From Thermodesulfobacteriota bacterium (GTDB lineage Bacteria > Desulfobacterota_D > UBA1144 > Nemesobacterales > UBA2774): a stretch of DNA of 64,000 nucleotides. Positions 3,495 to 64,000 of the stretch are shown here, piece by piece (position 1 is the first letter of the stretch; each line of letters begins with the position of its first letter). A model generated the notes under the pieces. The model ran no database searches, was not told the origin of the DNA, and saw nothing but the letters and a program-made list of their open reading frames with translations. A program made the translations under genes and the position numbers. Location of the stretch: assembly GCA_965216785.1 (NCBI GenBank), contig OZ244197.1, forward strand, positions 1-64,000, read 5' to 3'.

Positions 3495-4508
3495 TCAGGA
3501 GGAGAATGTATCTAAAATCGCTTTTTGATACTCCCTTACCTCATCAAAGTCAAGATAGTAGTGCGGGGCACTGAGTATGGGCAAGTCTATAAAGTCCAGG
3601 TATTCCTCTACCCTCTTTCTGCATTCTTCCGGTGCTCCGACAATAGCAAAGGTATCGACCATATCATCCGACACGTTCTCAACCATACCCTCTACGTCAC
3701 GGTTAAAGAAAGCCTCTCTGATCTTAGCCGTTTCATTTTCAAATCCGTGAAGCTTAAAAGGGGGCTCGTAAGTCCTTACAGTCGCATAGAACGCGATCGT
3801 AGCGCGGGCTGCCTGCCTGGCCCGCTTCTTATCTTGAGATACGGCGCATGTGATTATCGAAGCATTCGTAAAATTACCCGGGTCTTTGCCGCCGTTTTTA
3901 AGCCCCAGCTCAAGGCTCTTAGACACCACCTCCTTTAAATAGCGGAGCGAGCAAACAACGTGTCCGATATACCCATCGGCAACTTCCCCAGCAGCCTGAG
4001 TCATTTTTGCCCCTACCCCGGCAAGAAATACCGGGATACTATCCCTCTCCGGTTTAAAGGCTCTGTGATATCCCCTGGTACTAATATTGTAAAATTCCCC
4101 TTCATAGCTAATTGGTCCTTCCAGGTGAGAAGCACCTATTATATGCCTTATCACCTCGATACACTCCTTTATCCTGGTTACGGGCTTACCGTGGGTAAGT
4201 CCGTGCCACAGTTCATTTGTGCGCTTGGCCCCTGAGCCTAGACCCAATAAAAGCCTTCCCTGTGAGACCTCGTCCAGATCAAGCGCCGTGAGTGATGTGA
4301 TTAAAGGGGAGCGTACGAACGCAAGCGCTACTGCTGTGCCGAGTTTTATTCCCTGAGTTTCCGCGGCTACCGCAGCCAGCTGCTGAAAAGAAGTGCGGTA
4401 TAGCTCCGTTGCCCAGACAGAGTCAAACCCTGCGTCCTCAGCCTCCTTAGCTAAGGAGACGATATCTGATATTCGGTCTCCGTCCAATATTAATCCTACA
4501 GGCTTCAC
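3495..4508 (-). CDS. luciferase-like (LLM class) oxidoreductase, probably F420-dependent
   Basis: AE.AGFDSVW..E, LGTAVA.AF.RSP, GRL.LGLG, AGEVADG; cofactor is inferred. Confidence 0.8.
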   Translation of the reverse strand: MKPVGLILDGDRISDIVSLAKEAEDAGFDSVWATELYRTSFQQLAAVAAETQGIKLGTAVALAFVRSPLITSLTALDLDEVSQGRLLLGLGSGAKRTNELWHGLTHGKPVTRIKECIEVIRHIIGASHLEGPISYEGEFYNISTRGYHRAFKPERDSIPVFLAGVGAKMTQAAGEVADGYIGHVVCSLRYLKEVVSKSLELGLKNGGKDPGNFTNASIITCAVSQDKKRARQAARATIAFYATVRTYEPPFKLHGFENETAKIREAFFNRDVEGMVENVSDDMVDTFAIVGAPEECRKRVEEYLDFIDLPILSAPHYYLDFDEVREYQKAILDTFSS

Positions 4509-56977: not shown

Positions 56978-57931
56978 TCAATTTTGTGAAAGACTCAGTG
57001 TCAGATCATCGACATTTTTAGGGAGCTTCTTAAAGTTTTCCTTTGAGGTCGAGTATATGGTGTCCTGAGAGTCAAACTTAATATAGTACTCGTCTTCGTC
57101 TTTGCGTTTGCCGAAGAATAGTTTATGCGAGGCGCCGTTTTGGAATATCTCAATTTCAGCAGTCGGCAGATCTAATCCGAAGCTCTTTAAACTTTCGGGC
57201 TCACGGCTCACAACTCCGTTAATTTCCAGATCCGAAAGAGTCATCAGAAGCTGATCCGCCTTTTCCTGATCGAGCTTCACGTCTTCTGTAAGCGGCTCAG
57301 CAATCCATAGACCGTCTTCTCTTTCAAACTGAATGTAAAAATTCCCTACTCTTAGAACAATCCGGTTAACCAGATCGGGGATCAGAGCAATCACCCTTTT
57401 ATCCCTGAAATCCTTACCGGAGTTATCTATTAATCTTGAGGCCGCAGCGTTATCAATGATGAGCACTCTGTCTTTATCAACGTCATAAACGTATGTGCCG
57501 GTCTCGCTCGGATTCTGATTGCCGATTAGTAAGTAGTATTCGGCCCTGTCAGATATGACCATAAATTCCGAAGGGGGCTCGTGCAGACCGAATTGGTCCA
57601 GCTCAAGACCCTTTGAGGAAACAGTCTCTATAAGCTCCATAGACTTAATATCGTTGACTAAATCCTGAACATCCGCGCTGTCGGCCTTTGACCTGCGCTC
57701 CGAATCCGATACGAACCATTGTCCGTCTTCATTGTCAAGATTGATTTCAGAGCCCGGTGATTTTAGCATTACAGAGAGAATTTCTTCTTTTTCGAGAGAA
57801 GGGAAAACCATTTTTTTATCATCGGCTTCATCTTCCCCGTTAAATAGAAAGATCCCGCCCAGCAGTATGAGGAAGATCACTGCCGCTGCTAAGGTGCCTG
57901 AAAATTTTTTCAGATAAGGGCTTATTCCCAT
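56978..57931 (-). CDS. DUF4340-like membrane-anchored protein
   Basis: N-terminal TM; two repeats with W, FGL..P and (I/F)G...Y motifs; position after GldG-like gene. Confidence 0.75.
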   Translation of the reverse strand: MGISPYLKKFSGTLAAAVIFLILLGGIFLFNGEDEADDKKMVFPSLEKEEILSVMLKSPGSEINLDNEDGQWFVSDSERRSKADSADVQDLVNDIKSMELIETVSSKGLELDQFGLHEPPSEFMVISDRAEYYLLIGNQNPSETGTYVYDVDKDRVLIIDNAAASRLIDNSGKDFRDKRVIALIPDLVNRIVLRVGNFYIQFEREDGLWIAEPLTEDVKLDQEKADQLLMTLSDLEINGVVSREPESLKSFGLDLPTAEIEIFQNGASHKLFFGKRKDEDEYYIKFDSQDTIYSTSKENFKKLPKNVDDLTLSLSQN

Positions 57932-58000
57932 CTATTAAGAGTATTAGTTCAGAGTTTTATAATTACAATTTTATATGTGTCTGTATTGTCTCTTAGAATA

Positions 58001-59362
58001 TTACATCTTTCTTCTTTTCCACCATATTGCAACCCCAGAGAATAGAACCACAGCCGGTATGAGTATGACAGTAAAGAAAAAGATAATATTTGTCTGCTGA
58101 TTAGTAATGGTGAGCTTTCCCTGCTCGGCGCTCTTGGGTCTGATGGAAATAAGGTTTTCATCACCCGAGACCCAGTTTACCGTATTCAAAAAAAGGTCTC
58201 GGTTCCCTGAGAAGTCAAAGAATATGTTCGACACGAAATCTACGCTACCGAAAACCGCTATCCTGCCCCTGGAGCCGTTCTCAGATACCGCGAGTACGCC
58301 TAAAGGGCCCGTCTTGTCACTCTCTTCCTGCTGAGCCACACCCTGATCGAAATTCTCAAAATCAGTTTCCGACCAGCTGTACTGCCCAGTATGGGCCAGG
58401 ACGACTGCATTCATGCCATCGACATCGTGGGTATCTATACTCCGGGAGTAGGGAAATATGGTCGCGTAGCGAAAATCATCTGTGATTTCATGGGGGGTGT
58501 ACTCGCCTACTATTGGGGCTATATCGCCCCCGCCTTCAAGCTTTGAGCTGGGGTCGACAATGATATCCTCTGAGAGCATTATTCCGTAAGATTTAAGGAC
58601 AGATACTATCTCGCCGCCCGTACGGGGCTCGATCATAAAGACCGCCTTCCCTCCCTTTGAGAGGTATTCCTTTATATCCCCTATCTCCTTTAGAGTGAAG
58701 GCCTGTTTGGGCGCCGCAAGCACAATTACGGAGTTTTCAGCAGGAAGCGCCTGCCCTTTTGGTAAAAGTATTTCTCTTACGTTATAACCTTCGTCGATGA
58801 GCGCGTTCTTGAGCACGCCTAACCCTTCGGGCTCGACATCGTCCCCTATGTCCCTTTCGCCGTGACCGGTTATAAAATAAACTGTCTTATTAATATTTCT
58901 CGACAGTTTCAGAATAGCGTTTGTGATCTCCTCTTCGGAGTTATTTATTATGCCGCCTGAAAGCGGATCACCCAGTCTGAGCTTTATCGTTTCGTCCCCG
59001 TACGCCACAACAACAGAGCCGTATTCTTTAATTTCGTATTTCTTGGCAAGACCTGGTTCTTTGTCGGGGTTTATTACGCTTACACTTAAATTATCGGCGC
59101 GTCTGGTATAGTCCTTTATCAAGTCTTGAAACTCACTCCTGTCAGCGCCGGTGTCTTTGAAGAAGGCGATAATTTCTATGGGGCTATCGAGCTCGTTTAA
59201 CACCTCTACAGTATTATCCGAGACCGTGTAGAGCTTTGTGTCTGTGAGGTCGAATCTGAAATCGCTCTTCGAAGCCAGAAAGTTCAGGATAATGAGTATT
59301 CCGACTGTGCTTATTATGGATATGAGCGCATTGGTACCGTATATGAGCCTTCTGTTCTTCAT
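58001..59362 (-). CDS. GldG-like ABC transporter auxiliary component
   Basis: DLT..K.YT.S..T, VYF.TGHGE, L..GG, H.IT, N.D.FLN.V.W, C-terminal TM then WWKRR; ATGA overlap with the permease stop. Confidence 0.87.
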   Translation of the reverse strand: MKNRRLIYGTNALISIISTVGILIILNFLASKSDFRFDLTDTKLYTVSDNTVEVLNELDSPIEIIAFFKDTGADRSEFQDLIKDYTRRADNLSVSVINPDKEPGLAKKYEIKEYGSVVVAYGDETIKLRLGDPLSGGIINNSEEEITNAILKLSRNINKTVYFITGHGERDIGDDVEPEGLGVLKNALIDEGYNVREILLPKGQALPAENSVIVLAAPKQAFTLKEIGDIKEYLSKGGKAVFMIEPRTGGEIVSVLKSYGIMLSEDIIVDPSSKLEGGGDIAPIVGEYTPHEITDDFRYATIFPYSRSIDTHDVDGMNAVVLAHTGQYSWSETDFENFDQGVAQQEESDKTGPLGVLAVSENGSRGRIAVFGSVDFVSNIFFDFSGNRDLFLNTVNWVSGDENLISIRPKSAEQGKLTITNQQTNIIFFFTVILIPAVVLFSGVAIWWKRRKM

Positions 59363-60111
59363 CTCCACCTCTCTGATTCTAGCGCGGTGTGAGCGAGAAA
59401 GAGCCCGAGGTATACAAGCGATCCATAGTATACTAGATCTTTAATTCCGATAATACCTTTACCGAAAGGCTCGAAGTGGTTAATGACGGATATATAGCCG
59501 AGGATACTGCCGTCCACAGGTGACATAGCGCCCACCAGCCAGAGCACGAGGAGAACGCCGAAAGAGATTACGGCCGCTATTAGCTGGTTATCTGTGAGAG
59601 AGGAAGCAAAAAGACCGATTGCGAGAAAAGAAGCTCCAAGCAGAAAGAGCCCGATGTAACCTGATGTGACGGCGCCGATATCGGGGTTACCGTGCACCAT
59701 TAAAACAAATACATTTATCGAGGAAAGCGCAAGCATAATAACGAGAAGGATTAAGGCCGCAAGGTATTTACCGAGTATTATGGTTCTAAGCTTAATAGGG
59801 GAAGTGAACAGAAGCTCCGCGGTGTAGCTCTTTCTTTCATCCGCCAACTGTCTCATGGTTATAAGCGGTATTATGATGAGCAGCACCAGAGTGATGGTAC
59901 CGAAGTAGGGAGCTAAAACCAGGTTGTTTAGGTTAAGCTCACCCCTTTGGAGCTGAAAACCGGGATCTAGCTGTATGTGCAAAAAACCTTTTAAATATAG
60001 GAAAAAGAACCAGGCAGATATCGCCTGAAAGACTACGATGATGATATAGGCGAGCGGGGAAGCAAAATAGGATTTAAGCTCTCTTTTTAAAATAGGTGAT
60101 ATCGAATTCAT
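59359..60111 (-). CDS. ABC-2 permease (GldF-like)
   Basis: REL.SYF.SP.AY, P.ITMR..A.E...T.ELL.T.P, GKY, SSLT.NQ. Confidence 0.88.
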   Translation of the reverse strand: MNSISPILKRELKSYFASPLAYIIIVVFQAISAWFFFLYLKGFLHIQLDPGFQLQRGELNLNNLVLAPYFGTITLVLLIIIPLITMRQLADERKSYTAELLFTSPIKLRTIILGKYLAALILLVIMLALSSINVFVLMVHGNPDIGAVTSGYIGLFLLGASFLAIGLFASSLTDNQLIAAVISFGVLLVLWLVGAMSPVDGSILGYISVINHFEPFGKGIIGIKDLVYYGSLVYLGLFLAHTALESERWR

Positions 60112-60114
60112 TTC

Positions 60115-61038
60115 TCAGCCTTCGGATGAAATAACCTTTAGAAATATTTCCTCTAACGTATGCGTGAGGGGTCTTAGCTCAAGGAGGCCCCAGTCGTTTT
60201 GTACGGCCGTCTTTGCAAGCTCATCCCTTACATCGCTGCCGTTTGAAGGAACAATGACATACTCGCCCGGAGCGCTCATATTTACCTTTGATATGTTTTC
60301 TATGGACTCAATTTTTTCTTTTACGTTATCACCGTCATGCCTTAGCTTTAAGTAGAGACTCTCAGAGCTCTTAAGGTTCAAAGAGAGCGACTCAAGGGAT
60401 TCTTCCAGCGCAATCCTGCCCTCGTTAATTATTATCACACGGCTGCATATCATAGTGACCTCGGGAAGTATGTGCGTGCTAAGTATTATGGTACGCTCAC
60501 CGGCGAGGCTTTTGATGAGCTCGCGTATCTCGATAATCTGCACCGGGTCAAGCCCGTTTGTAGGCTCGTCGAGTACGAGTACCGAGGGGTTATTAATGAG
60601 CGCTTGGGCTATACCGACGCGCTGTTTGTAGCCCTTTGACAGATGGGCTATGATCCGCTTGCTTACCGATGTGATACCGCACTTGTCCATTACGTAGAGG
60701 ATCCTGCCCTTTTTTTCCTTTGAGGGTACTTTTTTGATGTCGGCTACAAAATCAAGGTAGTCCTCAACATCCATGTCATTATAAAGAGGCGGGTTTTCGG
60801 GCAGATATCCGATCTGTTTTTTCGCCTGTAGCGGGTGGTCAAATATGTCGACGTCCTCAATGCGTACAGAGCCTTTTGTAGGAGGCATATAGCCCGTAAT
60901 GATGCGCATGGTCGTAGTTTTACCCGCTCCGTTGGGACCTAAAAACCCAAGCACATCGCCCTTCTCGAGCTCAAAAGAAATGTTTTCAACGGCACGAAGG
61001 CTGCCGTAGTTTTTAGTGAGATTATGAACGCGTATCAA
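60115..61038 (-). CDS. ABC transporter ATP-binding protein (GldA-like)
   Basis: GPNGAGKTT, GYLPE.PPLY, LSKGYKQRVG.AQA, LDEPT.GLDP.QI, STHIL.EV. Confidence 0.92.
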   Translation of the reverse strand: MIRVHNLTKNYGSLRAVENISFELEKGDVLGFLGPNGAGKTTTMRIITGYMPPTKGSVRIEDVDIFDHPLQAKKQIGYLPENPPLYNDMDVEDYLDFVADIKKVPSKEKKGRILYVMDKCGITSVSKRIIAHLSKGYKQRVGIAQALINNPSVLVLDEPTNGLDPVQIIEIRELIKSLAGERTIILSTHILPEVTMICSRVIIINEGRIALEESLESLSLNLKSSESLYLKLRHDGDNVKEKIESIENISKVNMSAPGEYVIVPSNGSDVRDELAKTAVQNDWGLLELRPLTHTLEEIFLKVISSEG

Positions 61039-61428
61039 ATAAGTATGTACTCCCGATGCCTATTACCCAATACCCTAAACCCACTCCGTATATATTTGAG
61101 GACTGCAAATAGAATAACCGTACCTTAATTCTATTCCAAACTGATTATTAATGATAGTTTTAATTCTCTGAGATTTGGGTAGAATTTACGGTTAGCCAAA
61201 GAAAATTGACTAAGCGTTATAACTATGATATTAAACTGGATGTATTATTAAATAAGGGTGGCAATTTAGAGATATACCGATATTAAGAAAACGGATATTT
61301 AATCATATTTACGAACACCATAGCATCGAAAATACATCATATACAATACAGGACTTGGAAGGCCTATTATTAAAAGCCTAAAAGCCGTGTTCTGTAAGTG
61401 ATAAGACTACCGAAGAAGGGAGTTTTTG

Positions 61429-62709
61429 ATGAGTAAAGAAGAGCTTAGTAACGACGACAAACTAGTGCTTGCGGTCAAAAAAAGGTACCACGATATGCTC
61501 GCTGAGGGTGTTGACCCCTATGAGTGGGCTTATGCGTGGCGCTCTGAGATTAACCGAGGCGGTTTTAAAGCGGTTGATTTCCTTATGGACGAAATAGTGG
61601 ATACTGGTAAGTGCGTCGGGTGCGCAGCCTGTGTGACAATTTGCCCGACCGATGTATTTGACTATAAGGACGAGCACCCTGTGGATACGAGAAAGGACGC
61701 ATGCGTGCTGTGCGAGCTTTGCGCAGACGTTTGCCCGGTTCTCAGACCCCTGGATAAGGATCTGCACACACTTTTGGGCTTTAAGCAGCCGGTAATTGAC
61801 GAGGGGTTCGGCCCTTACAACTACGCCGTAATAGCACGGGCAAAGAATAAGGAGTTTTTGGAGAAGGGACAGGACGGAGGAGTAACGAGCGCGCTTTTGG
61901 TGCATCTGCTGGAGCAGGGCGCCATAAACGGTGCGGTGCTCGGAGACGTGCTTCCGGAAAACCCTCAGGTAGGCGTGCAGAAACTCGCCACCACTTCAGA
62001 GGAAATAGTTCAGTGCAGCGGCTCGCGATACACATATTCGCCCAACACTGTGGCATTGACCGAGGCTATGAGACAGGACGTGCGTCCTCTGGCAGTAGTT
62101 GGCGTGCCTTGTCAGGTGGACGGAGTTCGTCAGCAGCAGTATAGCAGCATACGACTTGAAGTGGCCAAATGGTATCAGAAAAACGTAAGCCTGGTAATCG
62201 GGCTGTATTGCTCTGAGAGCTTTACTCACGAGCACATTACATATATAGCGAAAGAGCTTGATGTTGAGCCAAAAGATATTGTTAGAGTGAACGTAAAGGG
62301 CAAGGTAATAATCGAGCTCCGCGACGGCAGGGAAATAATTATGAAGCTCAAGGACTTTCATCCTTTCGCGCGGCCCGCATGCCTTTATTGTCTTGACTAT
62401 TCCGCTGAGCACGCTGATATCGGAGTGGGAGGTATAGGGCTTGACGGATGGACATTTGTAGCTGTCCGCACAGAAGCGGGGCACAAGGCGTGGCAGGCGG
62501 GAGTGGATGCGGATCTTTTTGAAATCATGGAAGTAGATGAAGTACCAAAGGCAAAGAGCCTGCTCATAAGGCTCTCTGAAATGAAAAGAAATAAACCCCT
62601 CCCTGCACTTATGCCTACGCTGCAGGAGAGGATTGAAATGGGCAACACAAACCCTAAGACTTTCTATAAAGATTACAATCCAAGCGATGGAGGAAAAAAC
62701 GGTAAATGA
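61429..62709 (+). CDS. coenzyme F420 hydrogenase/dehydrogenase beta-subunit family protein (FrhB/FpoF-like) with 2x[4Fe-4S] domain
   Basis: CVGCAACVTICP and CVLCELCADVCP; GQDGG.TS.LL, GSRY, VG.PCQ, IGL.C.ESF, C..C.D..A..ADI.VG, GWT. Confidence 0.88.
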   Translation: MSKEELSNDDKLVLAVKKRYHDMLAEGVDPYEWAYAWRSEINRGGFKAVDFLMDEIVDTGKCVGCAACVTICPTDVFDYKDEHPVDTRKDACVLCELCADVCPVLRPLDKDLHTLLGFKQPVIDEGFGPYNYAVIARAKNKEFLEKGQDGGVTSALLVHLLEQGAINGAVLGDVLPENPQVGVQKLATTSEEIVQCSGSRYTYSPNTVALTEAMRQDVRPLAVVGVPCQVDGVRQQQYSSIRLEVAKWYQKNVSLVIGLYCSESFTHEHITYIAKELDVEPKDIVRVNVKGKVIIELRDGREIIMKLKDFHPFARPACLYCLDYSAEHADIGVGGIGLDGWTFVAVRTEAGHKAWQAGVDADLFEIMEVDEVPKAKSLLIRLSEMKRNKPLPALMPTLQERIEMGNTNPKTFYKDYNPSDGGKNGK

Positions 62710-64000
62710 GCTCCAATAACGGCCAACCCGTACTCGAAGATATAAGCGTGATCGTAGCCGGACAGGGAGGTGACGGTTCACTTACAGTTATTACAATGCT
62801 TGCAGACCTGTTCCGGAACAGCGGGCTTAACGTATACACGGAAAGAGACGTGCTCTCGCGTATCCGCGGCGGACACGCGGCGGCAACGATGAGAGCGTTT
62901 ACCGGCCACCGCTACTGCATAGGGAGCAAGATCACTCTCCTAGTGGCGCTTGACGAAGAAGCGGTAACGAAAAATGCGCGTCATCTGGACTCTGACAGTG
63001 TGATAGTGTTCGATGACTCAAGCGGCCCTCTACCCGACGGATTATTACCCAAGGGCGCCAAGCTCTATGCGGCCCCTTTCAATAGAATCGCTATGCGTAC
63101 GATGAGACGCGAGTTATACAAAAACAGTATCGCTTTCGGAATGGTGGGGCGTCTGCTAGGACTTGAAGACGAGCACATGCGCGAGACTTTCGTAAAGCGC
63201 TTTGAAAGACGTGGGCAGGTAATTTTAGACTATAACTTAGAAGCACTCGGCCTTGGACTGCACATGGCGGACGAGCTGGATATTAAGGAAGGACACGGAC
63301 TTTATAGAATAGAGCGCACGGACCCTGAGGAGCACCTCTTAATAATGGGGAACGAATCCGTGGCTTTCGGATTCATGGCCGCAGGCGGAAGATTCTTCAC
63401 CGGCTATCCGATAACGCCCTCTACAGAGGTGCTTGAGACGCTGCAGAAATGGCTGCCAAAGTGCGGGGGAGTGGTAAGACAGACTGAGGATGAGCTTGCT
63501 GGCATAAATATGGCCATAGGCGCTGCGCTCACAGGCGCAAGGACTATGACCGCCACATCAGGACCCGGGTTTTCACTCATGCAGGAAGGAGTGGGACATG
63601 CCGGCTCTGCTGAAGTACCTATTGTCGTTGTGGACTGTCAGCGCTCGGGACCGAGCACCGGAATGCCTACAAGACCGGAGCAGAGCGATCTGAACCTTAT
63701 GATTTTTGGAGGTCACGGTGATTTCCCGAGATTCGTTCTAGCCCCGGGACACCCGGAGGACTGTTTTTATCTCACTGTAGACGCTACAAACCTGGCAGAT
63801 AAATATCAGCTGCCCGTGTTCATAGCAATGGACCAGGCGCTTTCACAGAACATTGCAACCGTAAAGCCCTTCGACCTGGACGAAATAACTGTTACACTAG
63901 GGAAGAGACTTAGCGCGGAGGATGTTGCAAAACTGGATACTTATAAACGCTACAGTTTCTCTGAGGACAATATCTCGGCGTTCGCCGCACCGGGAACACC
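62706..64000 (+). CDS. 2-oxoacid:acceptor oxidoreductase subunit alpha (gamma-alpha fused, KorA type), truncated by window end; not in the ORF track
   Basis: hand translation MSSNNGQPVLEDISVIVAGQGGDG..SRIRGGH..MGNESVA..GYPITPSTE..QTEDELAGI..TATSGPGFSLM.E..QRSGPSTGMPT..EQSDL..HGDFPR; frame stays open to 64000. Confidence 0.93.
   Translation, partial: MSSNNGQPVLEDISVIVAGQGGDGSLTVITMLADLFRNSGLNVYTERDVLSRIRGGHAAATMRAFTGHRYCIGSKITLLVALDEEAVTKNARHLDSDSVIVFDDSSGPLPDGLLPKGAKLYAAPFNRIAMRTMRRELYKNSIAFGMVGRLLGLEDEHMRETFVKRFERRGQVILDYNLEALGLGLHMADELDIKEGHGLYRIERTDPEEHLLIMGNESVAFGFMAAGGRFFTGYPITPSTEVLETLQKWLPKCGGVVRQTEDELAGINMAIGAALTGARTMTATSGPGFSLMQEGVGHAGSAEVPIVVVDCQRSGPSTGMPTRPEQSDLNLMIFGGHGDFPRFVLAPGHPEDCFYLTVDATNLADKYQLPVFIAMDQALSQNIATVKPFDLDEITVTLGKRLSAEDVAKLDTYKRYSFSEDNISAFAAPGT

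Follow-up and report, generated by a model that had tools for sequence, protein, structure and literature searches.

A conserved flavoprotein-korA-korB operon in uncultured bacteria as a candidate 2-oxoacid:F420 oxidoreductase

This report concerns an operon at the end of a 64,000-nucleotide stretch of DNA (the window), which is the initial 64 kb of the genome of a Thermodesulfobacteriota bacterium (GCA_965216785.1, here G000; single contig OZ244197.1, 3.12 Mb, 92% complete). The operon consists of a gene for an FrhB-family iron-sulfur flavoprotein followed by korA and korB, which appear to encode the two subunits of a 2-oxoacid:ferredoxin oxidoreductase (OFOR). We predict, with a probability of about 60%, that the three proteins together form a three-subunit 2-oxoacid:F420 oxidoreductase that works in the oxidative direction only. 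The features of the locus are as follows.

61039..61428, no strand: intergenic stretch of 390 bp that separates a divergent ABC-transporter ATPase gene from the operon
61416-61422: ribosome-binding site AAGGGAG, within the 390-bp stretch and ahead of the flavoprotein gene
61429..62709, plus strand: FrhB-family iron-sulfur flavoprotein gene, 426 amino acids (aa) counted from ATG
62706..62709, plus strand: ATGA stop/start overlap of the flavoprotein gene and korA, with GGAGG at 62689-62693
62706-64511 (cut at 64000 by the window end), plus strand: korA-type alpha subunit gene, 601 aa, gamma domain fused N-terminally
63405-63419, plus strand: YPITP motif of korA (KorA residues 234-238)
G000:C1:64508-65386, past the window: korB, 292 aa, ATGA overlap with korA

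An initial annotation, made from the letters of the window alone, had described the gap of ~390 bp, a first gene with two CxxCxxCxxxCP motifs and FrhB-family features, and its ATGA overlap with a KorA-type gene bearing YPITP, and all of these are in place. It had also proposed reading past position 64000 for korB, which lies there and is joined to korA by a second ATGA. No sigma-70-type promoter match is listed within the 390-bp stretch.

The domains, the fold and the cluster, FAD and F420-site markers of the flavoprotein predict an FrhB-fold F420-reductase module. Pfam recognizes a Fer4 domain and both FrhB domains, FrhB_FdhB_N at residues 134-210 (E 1e-19) and FrhB_FdhB_C at 221-371 (E 4e-35). 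The two cluster motifs, CVGCAACVTICP (C62-P73) and CVLCELCADVCP (C92-P103), supply the ligands C62/65/68/72 and C92/95/98/102 of a 2x[4Fe-4S] ferredoxin domain. The markers described for FrhB are the cluster cysteines C104, C134, C192 and C195, a K75-Y76 loop, small residues at 209-210 and a GKGK turn (PMC3591093); their positions were transferred to the flavoprotein via an alignment, and conservation was scored over 57 family rows. The four cluster cysteines correspond to C228, C261, C318 and C321 and are kept in 57/57 rows. The FAD-site motifs QDGG (148-151) and R200-Y201 are invariant, as are the F420-site markers G335-I336 and K290-G291, with residue 292 being K in 45 rows and R in 12. Neither QDGG nor KGK occurs in the capsule-locus rows or in the BciB-like row of the same alignment (L113, which owes this label to its position near bchI). 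The N-terminal helices (~8-57) are specific to the family, with W33, W37, R38 and E40 invariant, and the C-terminal tail is also conserved.

The curated FrhB and FpoF models are not reached by the flavoprotein, which scores 136 bits against cut-offs of 475 (NF040616) and 444 (PRK09326) for FpoF and 181 bits against the cut-off of 331.5 of TIGR03289, the FrhB of the [NiFe]-hydrogenase. Among solved structures, the profile of the family gives 168-185 bits on FrhB, FwdI (8RJA) and the zeta subunit of CO dehydrogenase (CODH; 8RIU), with lower scores for Fsr-type chains (127-142 bits), HCAR (64) and FdhB (44-56). The predicted model has a mean pLDDT of 72 and is poor over ferredoxin domain residues 64-101; its top Foldseek match is 8RIU zeta (E 8e-23), and VIA-align gives Z 34.0 for 8RIU zeta (root mean square deviation 3.8, 351 aligned) and Z 25.7 for HCAR (4.0, 326 aligned). 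An Atlas search with the flavoprotein returned FrhB-family clusters only. In a quick tree of 45 rows, which drew long-branch warnings and holds neither methanogen FrhB/FpoF nor HCAR, the family is a single clade (SH-aLRT 98) that is joined by a sister clade (92) and set apart from the capsule-locus, haloarchaeal and BciB-like rows. Hence the flavoprotein does not group with BciB or HCAR, the outcome that the initial annotation had named as adverse: it is far closer to the solved F420-reducing modules by profile and fold, its motifs differ from those of the BciB-like and capsule-locus rows, and it is separate from these rows in the tree (for HCAR the separation is by profile and fold). In G000, there is one FrhB_C-domain match and one POR_N match genome-wide, which makes the flavoprotein the only FrhB protein and the neighboring korA the only korA.

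KorA has the Pfam domains POR and POR_N and passes TIGR03710 (592 vs 483 bits). KorB has a GDGDG motif and the invariant cysteines C18, C21, C52 and C200; it scores 232 bits with TIGR02177, below the cut-off of 262, and its motifs are nonetheless conserved. The gamma-alpha fusion, YPITP, the GDG motif and the four cluster cysteines place the pair in the two-subunit (alpha-beta) type of OFOR. Such enzymes lack an internal ferredoxin domain, and an external ferredoxin can dock there (PMC5020499). No ferredoxin motif was found in any of 67 KorA or 67 KorB proteins (complete sets). The closest solved KorA is that of the Magnetococcus 2-oxoglutarate:ferredoxin oxidoreductase (OGOR; 6N2N), at 376 bits. 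The Magnetococcus OGOR and Sulfolobus StOFOR1/2 (5B46, 5B48) share with the operon a gamma-alpha fused KorA with YPITP, a one-cluster KorB and no internal ferredoxin domain; they differ in that they use free ferredoxin and in beta Lys49 (Arg in 6N2N), which is Thr or Ser here.

The linkage of the three genes is conserved. One genome per species was scanned for relatives, and the best 80 of 191 were kept and their loci inspected; these relatives of the flavoprotein have 56-96% identity, the closest named ones (up to 96%) being Candidatus Dadabacteria. In all 80 kept loci korA follows the flavoprotein gene immediately, with a 4-base overlap in 74 and a spacing of -14 to +5 bases in the remaining six, and so the ATGA overlap is not a matter of chance. 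The gene for korB comes next in 71 loci, and the other nine contigs stop inside korA. Small ferredoxin open reading frames (70-159 aa) are absent from the 80 loci. By the names of their records, the hosts of these best 80 of 191 represent about eight phyla: Dadabacteria/Thermodesulfobacteriota, Gamma-/Alphaproteobacteria, Actinomycetota, Chloroflexota, Myxococcota, Bipolaricaulota, Gemmatimonadota and Poribacteria. A KorB-like gene is present in 46 of 101 genomes of a gammaproteobacterial order; the KorB clade of the operon (E 3e-134 or better; other KorBs 4e-73 or worse) occurs in four, each time beside a whole flavoprotein gene. When compared pairwise, the three proteins have correlated distances (r 0.84-0.91), to which we give no weight as there was no control gene. 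One alphaproteobacterial genome, G342, has two flavoprotein gene copies (C2:240880-242139 and C43:20229-21479), the first of them ~2.8 kb from cofD.

The initial annotation had also held that a genome with no F420 biosynthesis genes would speak against its proposal. G000 passes the cut-offs for cofD, cofG and cofH, which sit side by side at about 1.45 Mb, as well as for cofE (1.11 Mb) and cofC (0.365 Mb). The genome encodes 13 luciferase-like monooxygenase (LLM) proteins, three of them above an F420-LLM cut-off; none of the 13 is over the Fgd cut-off. The window itself had been credited with a probable F420-using LLM enzyme. An LLM-class gene is present (3495-4508, minus strand); it is 57 kb off, and although F420-type families are its best matches, it stays below every F420-LLM cut-off (202 vs 278 bits at best).

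The other hosts display the same pattern. There are 56 loci outside the Dadabacteria, and cofD was searched for in 50 of their hosts, with six Acidimicrobiia left out: 45 pass the cut-off, two give a strong partial match, one a fragment and two nothing. Four of the five hosts under the cut-off have cofG and/or cofE, which brings the hosts with cofD, cofE or cofG to 49/50. As background, we took two orders (101 + 151 genomes) where F420 seldom occurs. In the first, cofD is present in 10/101 genomes, and the flavoprotein clade in five of the ten cofD-positive (in one of them as an N-terminal fragment located where a contig ends) and 0/91 cofD-negative genomes; in the second, cofD is present in 17/151, and the clade in 4/17 cofD-positive and 0/134 cofD-negative genomes. 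Pooled, 9/9 carriers have cofD and 0/225 cofD-negative genomes carry the flavoprotein, the carriers being related and partly pre-selected, with only 4/9 new in the order samples. Counts are given instead of a P value because five of the nine carriers were known beforehand and kin are not independent. Physical linkage to cof genes is more telling than these counts. Of the 56 non-Dadabacteria loci, 14 have such genes no more than 7 kb away, and seven of these (L067, L068, L071, L077, L080, L082 and L090) have them directly after korB on the same strand. In the phylum of the window, all 81 genomes sampled have cofD (74 over the cut-off) and 15 have the flavoprotein gene. The dependence is thus one-way: the flavoprotein goes with cofD, and not the converse. 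The presence of cofD in 81/81 sampled genomes of this phylum (G149-G228 sample), including genomes of ~1 Mb, suggests that F420 belongs to the core cofactors of this lineage.

The tree joins the flavoprotein to a sister family of ~400 aa (30-32% identity, no N-terminal helices), which occurs in six genomes of the phylum sample. Twelve of its loci were viewed (among those noted are L103, L104, L106 and L119-L124): five are directly after cofD-cofE-cofG-cofH, four are near a four-subunit korDABC, at a distance of ~1.5 kb or less (in two of them citrate synthase intervenes), and three show neither a cof nor a kor cluster. A natural KorC-ferredoxin-FrhB fusion of 585 aa exists in three sequences (P0153, P0242 and P0243), two of which are 89-90% identical to the third. 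The P0153 model is silent on contact between the domains, as the KorC part is unmodelled: most of residues 1-131 have a pLDDT below 50. The sister family is evidence in two directions: through it the wider clade is connected with both F420 and OFORs, and it is also an example of such proteins being encoded apart from kor genes.

Some further observations were made around this family. A large further FrhB-like group of ~390 aa (P0163-P0241) has 44-49% identity to the sister family and includes one member from Myxococcales. The korC of G218 (L106:12370-12999) seems to be divided between two reading frames close to its beginning. On haloarchaeal plasmids, an FrhB-like gene overlaps a ferredoxin-nitrite reductase gene (Halogeometricum, L114:391-3733) or precedes nosZ (Natronococcus, L115:2390-5806), and these could serve an F420H2-fed reduction of nitrogen oxides.

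How might the three proteins work? By analogy with known enzymes, a keto acid would be decarboxylated to acyl-CoA and its two electrons would go to F420, not to free ferredoxin. The electrons would enter at thiamine diphosphate in the KorA/KorB site and pass to the one [4Fe-4S] cluster that KorB has. The ferredoxin domain of the flavoprotein, with its two clusters, would occupy the empty ferredoxin pocket of KorAB, and from there the path may continue to the third cluster and to FAD, which would turn one-electron steps into a hydride for F420. We infer, then, that the flavoprotein replaces ferredoxin inside the complex. With regard to the parts of this scheme, the site markers and the association with cof genes make F420 the probable electron acceptor, and a fixed three-subunit complex is, by analogy and with less confidence, the likely arrangement. 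Potentials of about -500 mV for the 2-oxoacid couple and -340 mV for F420 (PMC9012536) represent a drop that would permit the oxidative direction only; the reverse flow of electrons from F420H2 into the OFOR, which the initial annotation had kept as an option, is therefore unlikely.

The plug-in design is known in archaea: CODH and Fwd are demonstrated cases, and pyruvate:ferredoxin oxidoreductase (PFOR) with FrhB6 in ANME-1 is a proposed one. The best structural matches, zeta (8RIU) and FwdI (8RJA) of Candidatus Ethanoperedens thermophilum, share the N-terminal 2x[4Fe-4S] domain and the FrhB domain (PMC11493965), and their genes likewise accompany those of a CO2-releasing enzyme that normally works with ferredoxin. 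As described in that paper, zeta docks onto its partner via the ferredoxin domain, and the complexes bearing zeta and FwdI reduce F420 eightfold faster than ferredoxin. Identity to them is ~24-28%; the operon differs in its partner, which is a thiamine-diphosphate OFOR where theirs are Ni or W enzymes, in its bacterial hosts and in the extra N-terminal helices. These two proteins are closer precedents than FpoF, to which the initial annotation had assigned the architecture. FpoF/FqoF have the same domain order as the flavoprotein, and soluble FpoF couples ferredoxin and F420 (as cited in PMC9012536); however, the flavoprotein is far under the cut-offs, and no link to a membrane Nuo/Fpo complex was seen. 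The FrhB of the F420-reducing [NiFe]-hydrogenase differs in that the flavoprotein has an N-terminal ferredoxin domain and korAB, not frhA/frhG, as neighbors. In ANME-1, FrhB6 is clustered with PFOR, and F420 reduction by oxidative decarboxylation has been proposed from gene clusters (PMC9012536). Both proposals place an FrhB paralogue beside a 2-oxoacid:ferredoxin oxidoreductase, but the ANME-1 one is archaeal, anaerobic and mainly with PFOR, whereas here the partner is a two-subunit KorAB in an invariant linkage across bacterial phyla.

The substrate is a matter of tentative prediction. The position of StOFOR1 beta Lys49 is Thr55 in the KorB of G000 (Thr in 35 and Ser in 22 of 57 rows); K49I abolishes 2-oxoglutarate activity in StOFOR1, and a 2-oxoglutarate-specific KorAB that does not have this residue is also known (PMC5020499). 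Alpha Arg52 is invariant and adjoins pocket residue Ser51, the equivalent of StOFOR1 Ser41, and one may guess that it compensates for the lost basic residue of beta. Asn441 of KorA is at the Asp468 position. The likeness of KorA to the Magnetococcus OGOR and the adjacency of sucAB in Dadabacteria favor 2-oxoglutarate, for which we would put the chances just short of even; pyruvate or a broad keto-acid range is quite possible, at odds somewhat further below even, and another keto acid is unlikely. A role of the OFOR as a stand-in for a missing pyruvate dehydrogenase (PDH) was rejected, as aceE passes its cut-off in G000.

The G000 genome encodes an aceE-type PDH and sucAB. By sequence motifs, it also has an NADH-type complex I, with NuoF-/NuoG-type genes, and a haem-copper oxidase; by such motifs and by sequence starts, the complex I genes appear to be scattered over at least four places instead of forming a single operon (G000:C1:378584-381269, 814631-815221, 1090405-1092637 and 1707540-1708829). 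Because these systems are present, the enzyme would be a side outlet beside NAD-linked PDH and 2-oxoglutarate dehydrogenase, yielding F420H2, or NADPH through Fno, in place of NADH; the F420H2 would feed host F420 reductases.

Several points weigh against the three-subunit reading, including the limits of the tree and the kinship of the carriers noted above. FrhB Ser209 is replaced by Gly in the flavoprotein. The Fno of G000 is already able to reduce F420, and a free ferredoxin, FdxA, could be an electron shuttle. Cofactor genes without the flavoprotein gene are common in the phylum (66/81 genomes), and the fragmented assembly G039 gives no match to cofD, cofE or cofG. The sister family has no kor genes in 8/12 loci and so needs no adjoining OFOR. 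A weak search of 747-2130-aa proteins found no flavoprotein-KorA fusion; it returned one protein, which has no Kor domain. P0265 (621 aa), in which a frameshift seems to have joined the flavoprotein to the KorA start, was not counted.

The alternative that survives best sees two enzymes here, an ordinary KorAB and the flavoprotein as a ferredoxin:F420 oxidoreductase in its own right, comparable to soluble FpoF, with free FdxA between them; the net chemistry would be the same and the architecture not new. The presence of FdxA, the activity of soluble FpoF, the frequent location of the sister family in a cof operon that has no kor genes and the failure to find a KorA fusion in that weak search would all suit this explanation. 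Against it stand the 4-base overlap in 74/80 loci with no ferredoxin gene among them, the KorB clade that is seen only beside the flavoprotein (one order, 101 genomes), the invariant family-specific N- and C-terminal extensions, which suit docking, and the KorC fusion in the sister family. We regard it as rather unlikely. It is improbable, in turn, that the flavoprotein is a built-in outlet of KorAB with an acceptor other than F420, such as Fo, free flavin, NAD(P), quinone or an organic substrate. The FrhB-fold proteins HCAR and BciB reduce chlorophyll precursors, the fold of the flavoprotein also matches HCAR (Z 25.7), every curated FrhB/FpoF cut-off is missed and G039 has no cof gene match; but none of 225 cofD-negative genomes carries the flavoprotein, cof genes come directly after korB in seven loci, the F420-site markers are kept and the tree separates the family from the capsule-locus and BciB-like rows. 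Finally, it is very improbable that the flavoprotein oxidizes F420H2, either to drive KorAB backwards for CO2 fixation or as an FpoF-like input to respiratory complex I: it shares the FpoF architecture (136 bits) and the closest solved KorA, 6N2N, is by the title of its paper a reductive tricarboxylic acid (TCA) cycle enzyme, but F420H2 at -340 mV cannot reduce a -500 mV couple (PMC9012536), a second flavin module that would allow bifurcation is missing from the operon, the NuoF-/NuoG-type genes of G000 would give NADH input, no nuo gene was recognized by eye among the recurring neighbors of the 80 loci, and the score is far below the FpoF cut-off of 475.

Taken as a whole, the operon is a real, conserved and likely F420-reducing variant of OFOR, and the initial proposal of a 2-oxoacid:F420 oxidoreductase is supported, with all three genomic tests (F420 genes, grouping and korAB linkage) in its favor. 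The same annotation knew of no such arrangement characterized in bacteria. No report of a bacterial 2-oxoacid:F420 oxidoreductase appeared in the open-access literature searched, with subscription papers and supplements outside it, and a prior mention is possible; the archaeal proposal for ANME-1 already exists. F420 is absent from the main text of a 2026 PFOR review and of a 2025 PFOR paper, and korAB of uncultured actinobacteria is treated as ferredoxin-linked in the relevant passages of PMC12008989.

The genes around the operon deserve a brief comment. Two features lie downstream.

65462-65489: near-consensus sigma-70 site in the 319-bp korB-sucA gap, 11/12 match
65706-69805, past the window: sucAB, downstream of korB after the 319-bp gap

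Seven promoter-like sites were found vs 5.7 expected, and only the match quality of the 65462-65489 site carries weight. Membership of sucAB in the operon was rejected: sucA is present in 19/24 Dadabacteria-like loci and 0/56 others and has its own promoter-like site. It is probably a separate transcription unit from flavoprotein-korA-korB. The occurrence of sucAB after korB is restricted to Dadabacteria-like genomes, and no lpd gene follows sucAB (G000:C1:65462-69805; L001:7463-11806). Upstream and divergent (window 56978-61038, minus strand) are an ABC-2 type ATPase, a permease, a long extracytoplasmic partner and a fourth gene; this set is upstream of the operon in ~18 Dadabacteria-like loci, with no sign of a functional link.

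On slightly better than even odds, these genes would represent a horizontally travelling three-gene module, that is, a ferredoxin-free, one-way 2-oxoacid:F420 oxidoreductase of uncultured bacteria in about eight phyla. It would be a further main source of F420H2 beside Fno and Fgd, its pocket may have been remodelled (alpha Arg52), and the sister family would have been recruited separately to four-subunit Kor enzymes, once as a KorC fusion. The bacterial routes of F420 reduction that have been named are Fno, Fgd and Adf (PMC8498797). These also supply F420H2 in bacteria, but there the hydride comes directly from NADPH, a sugar phosphate or an alcohol and not through an Fe-S relay from a low-potential decarboxylation.

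The database name of the flavoprotein, coenzyme F420 hydrogenase subunit beta, may mislead annotators into predicting hydrogen use, just as the Kor pair may lead them to a false prediction of a reductive TCA cycle. A keto-acid-driven F420 reductase could also be of use for cofactor recycling in biocatalysis. The operon would offer a test with pure proteins of the PFOR-FrhB proposal for ANME-1 and, if our prediction is true, the plug-in F420-reductase design, so far that of two archaeal enzymes, would extend to bacteria and to OFORs. For bacteria outside the Actinobacteria, this operon gives a testable further route to F420 reduction from central carbon metabolism.

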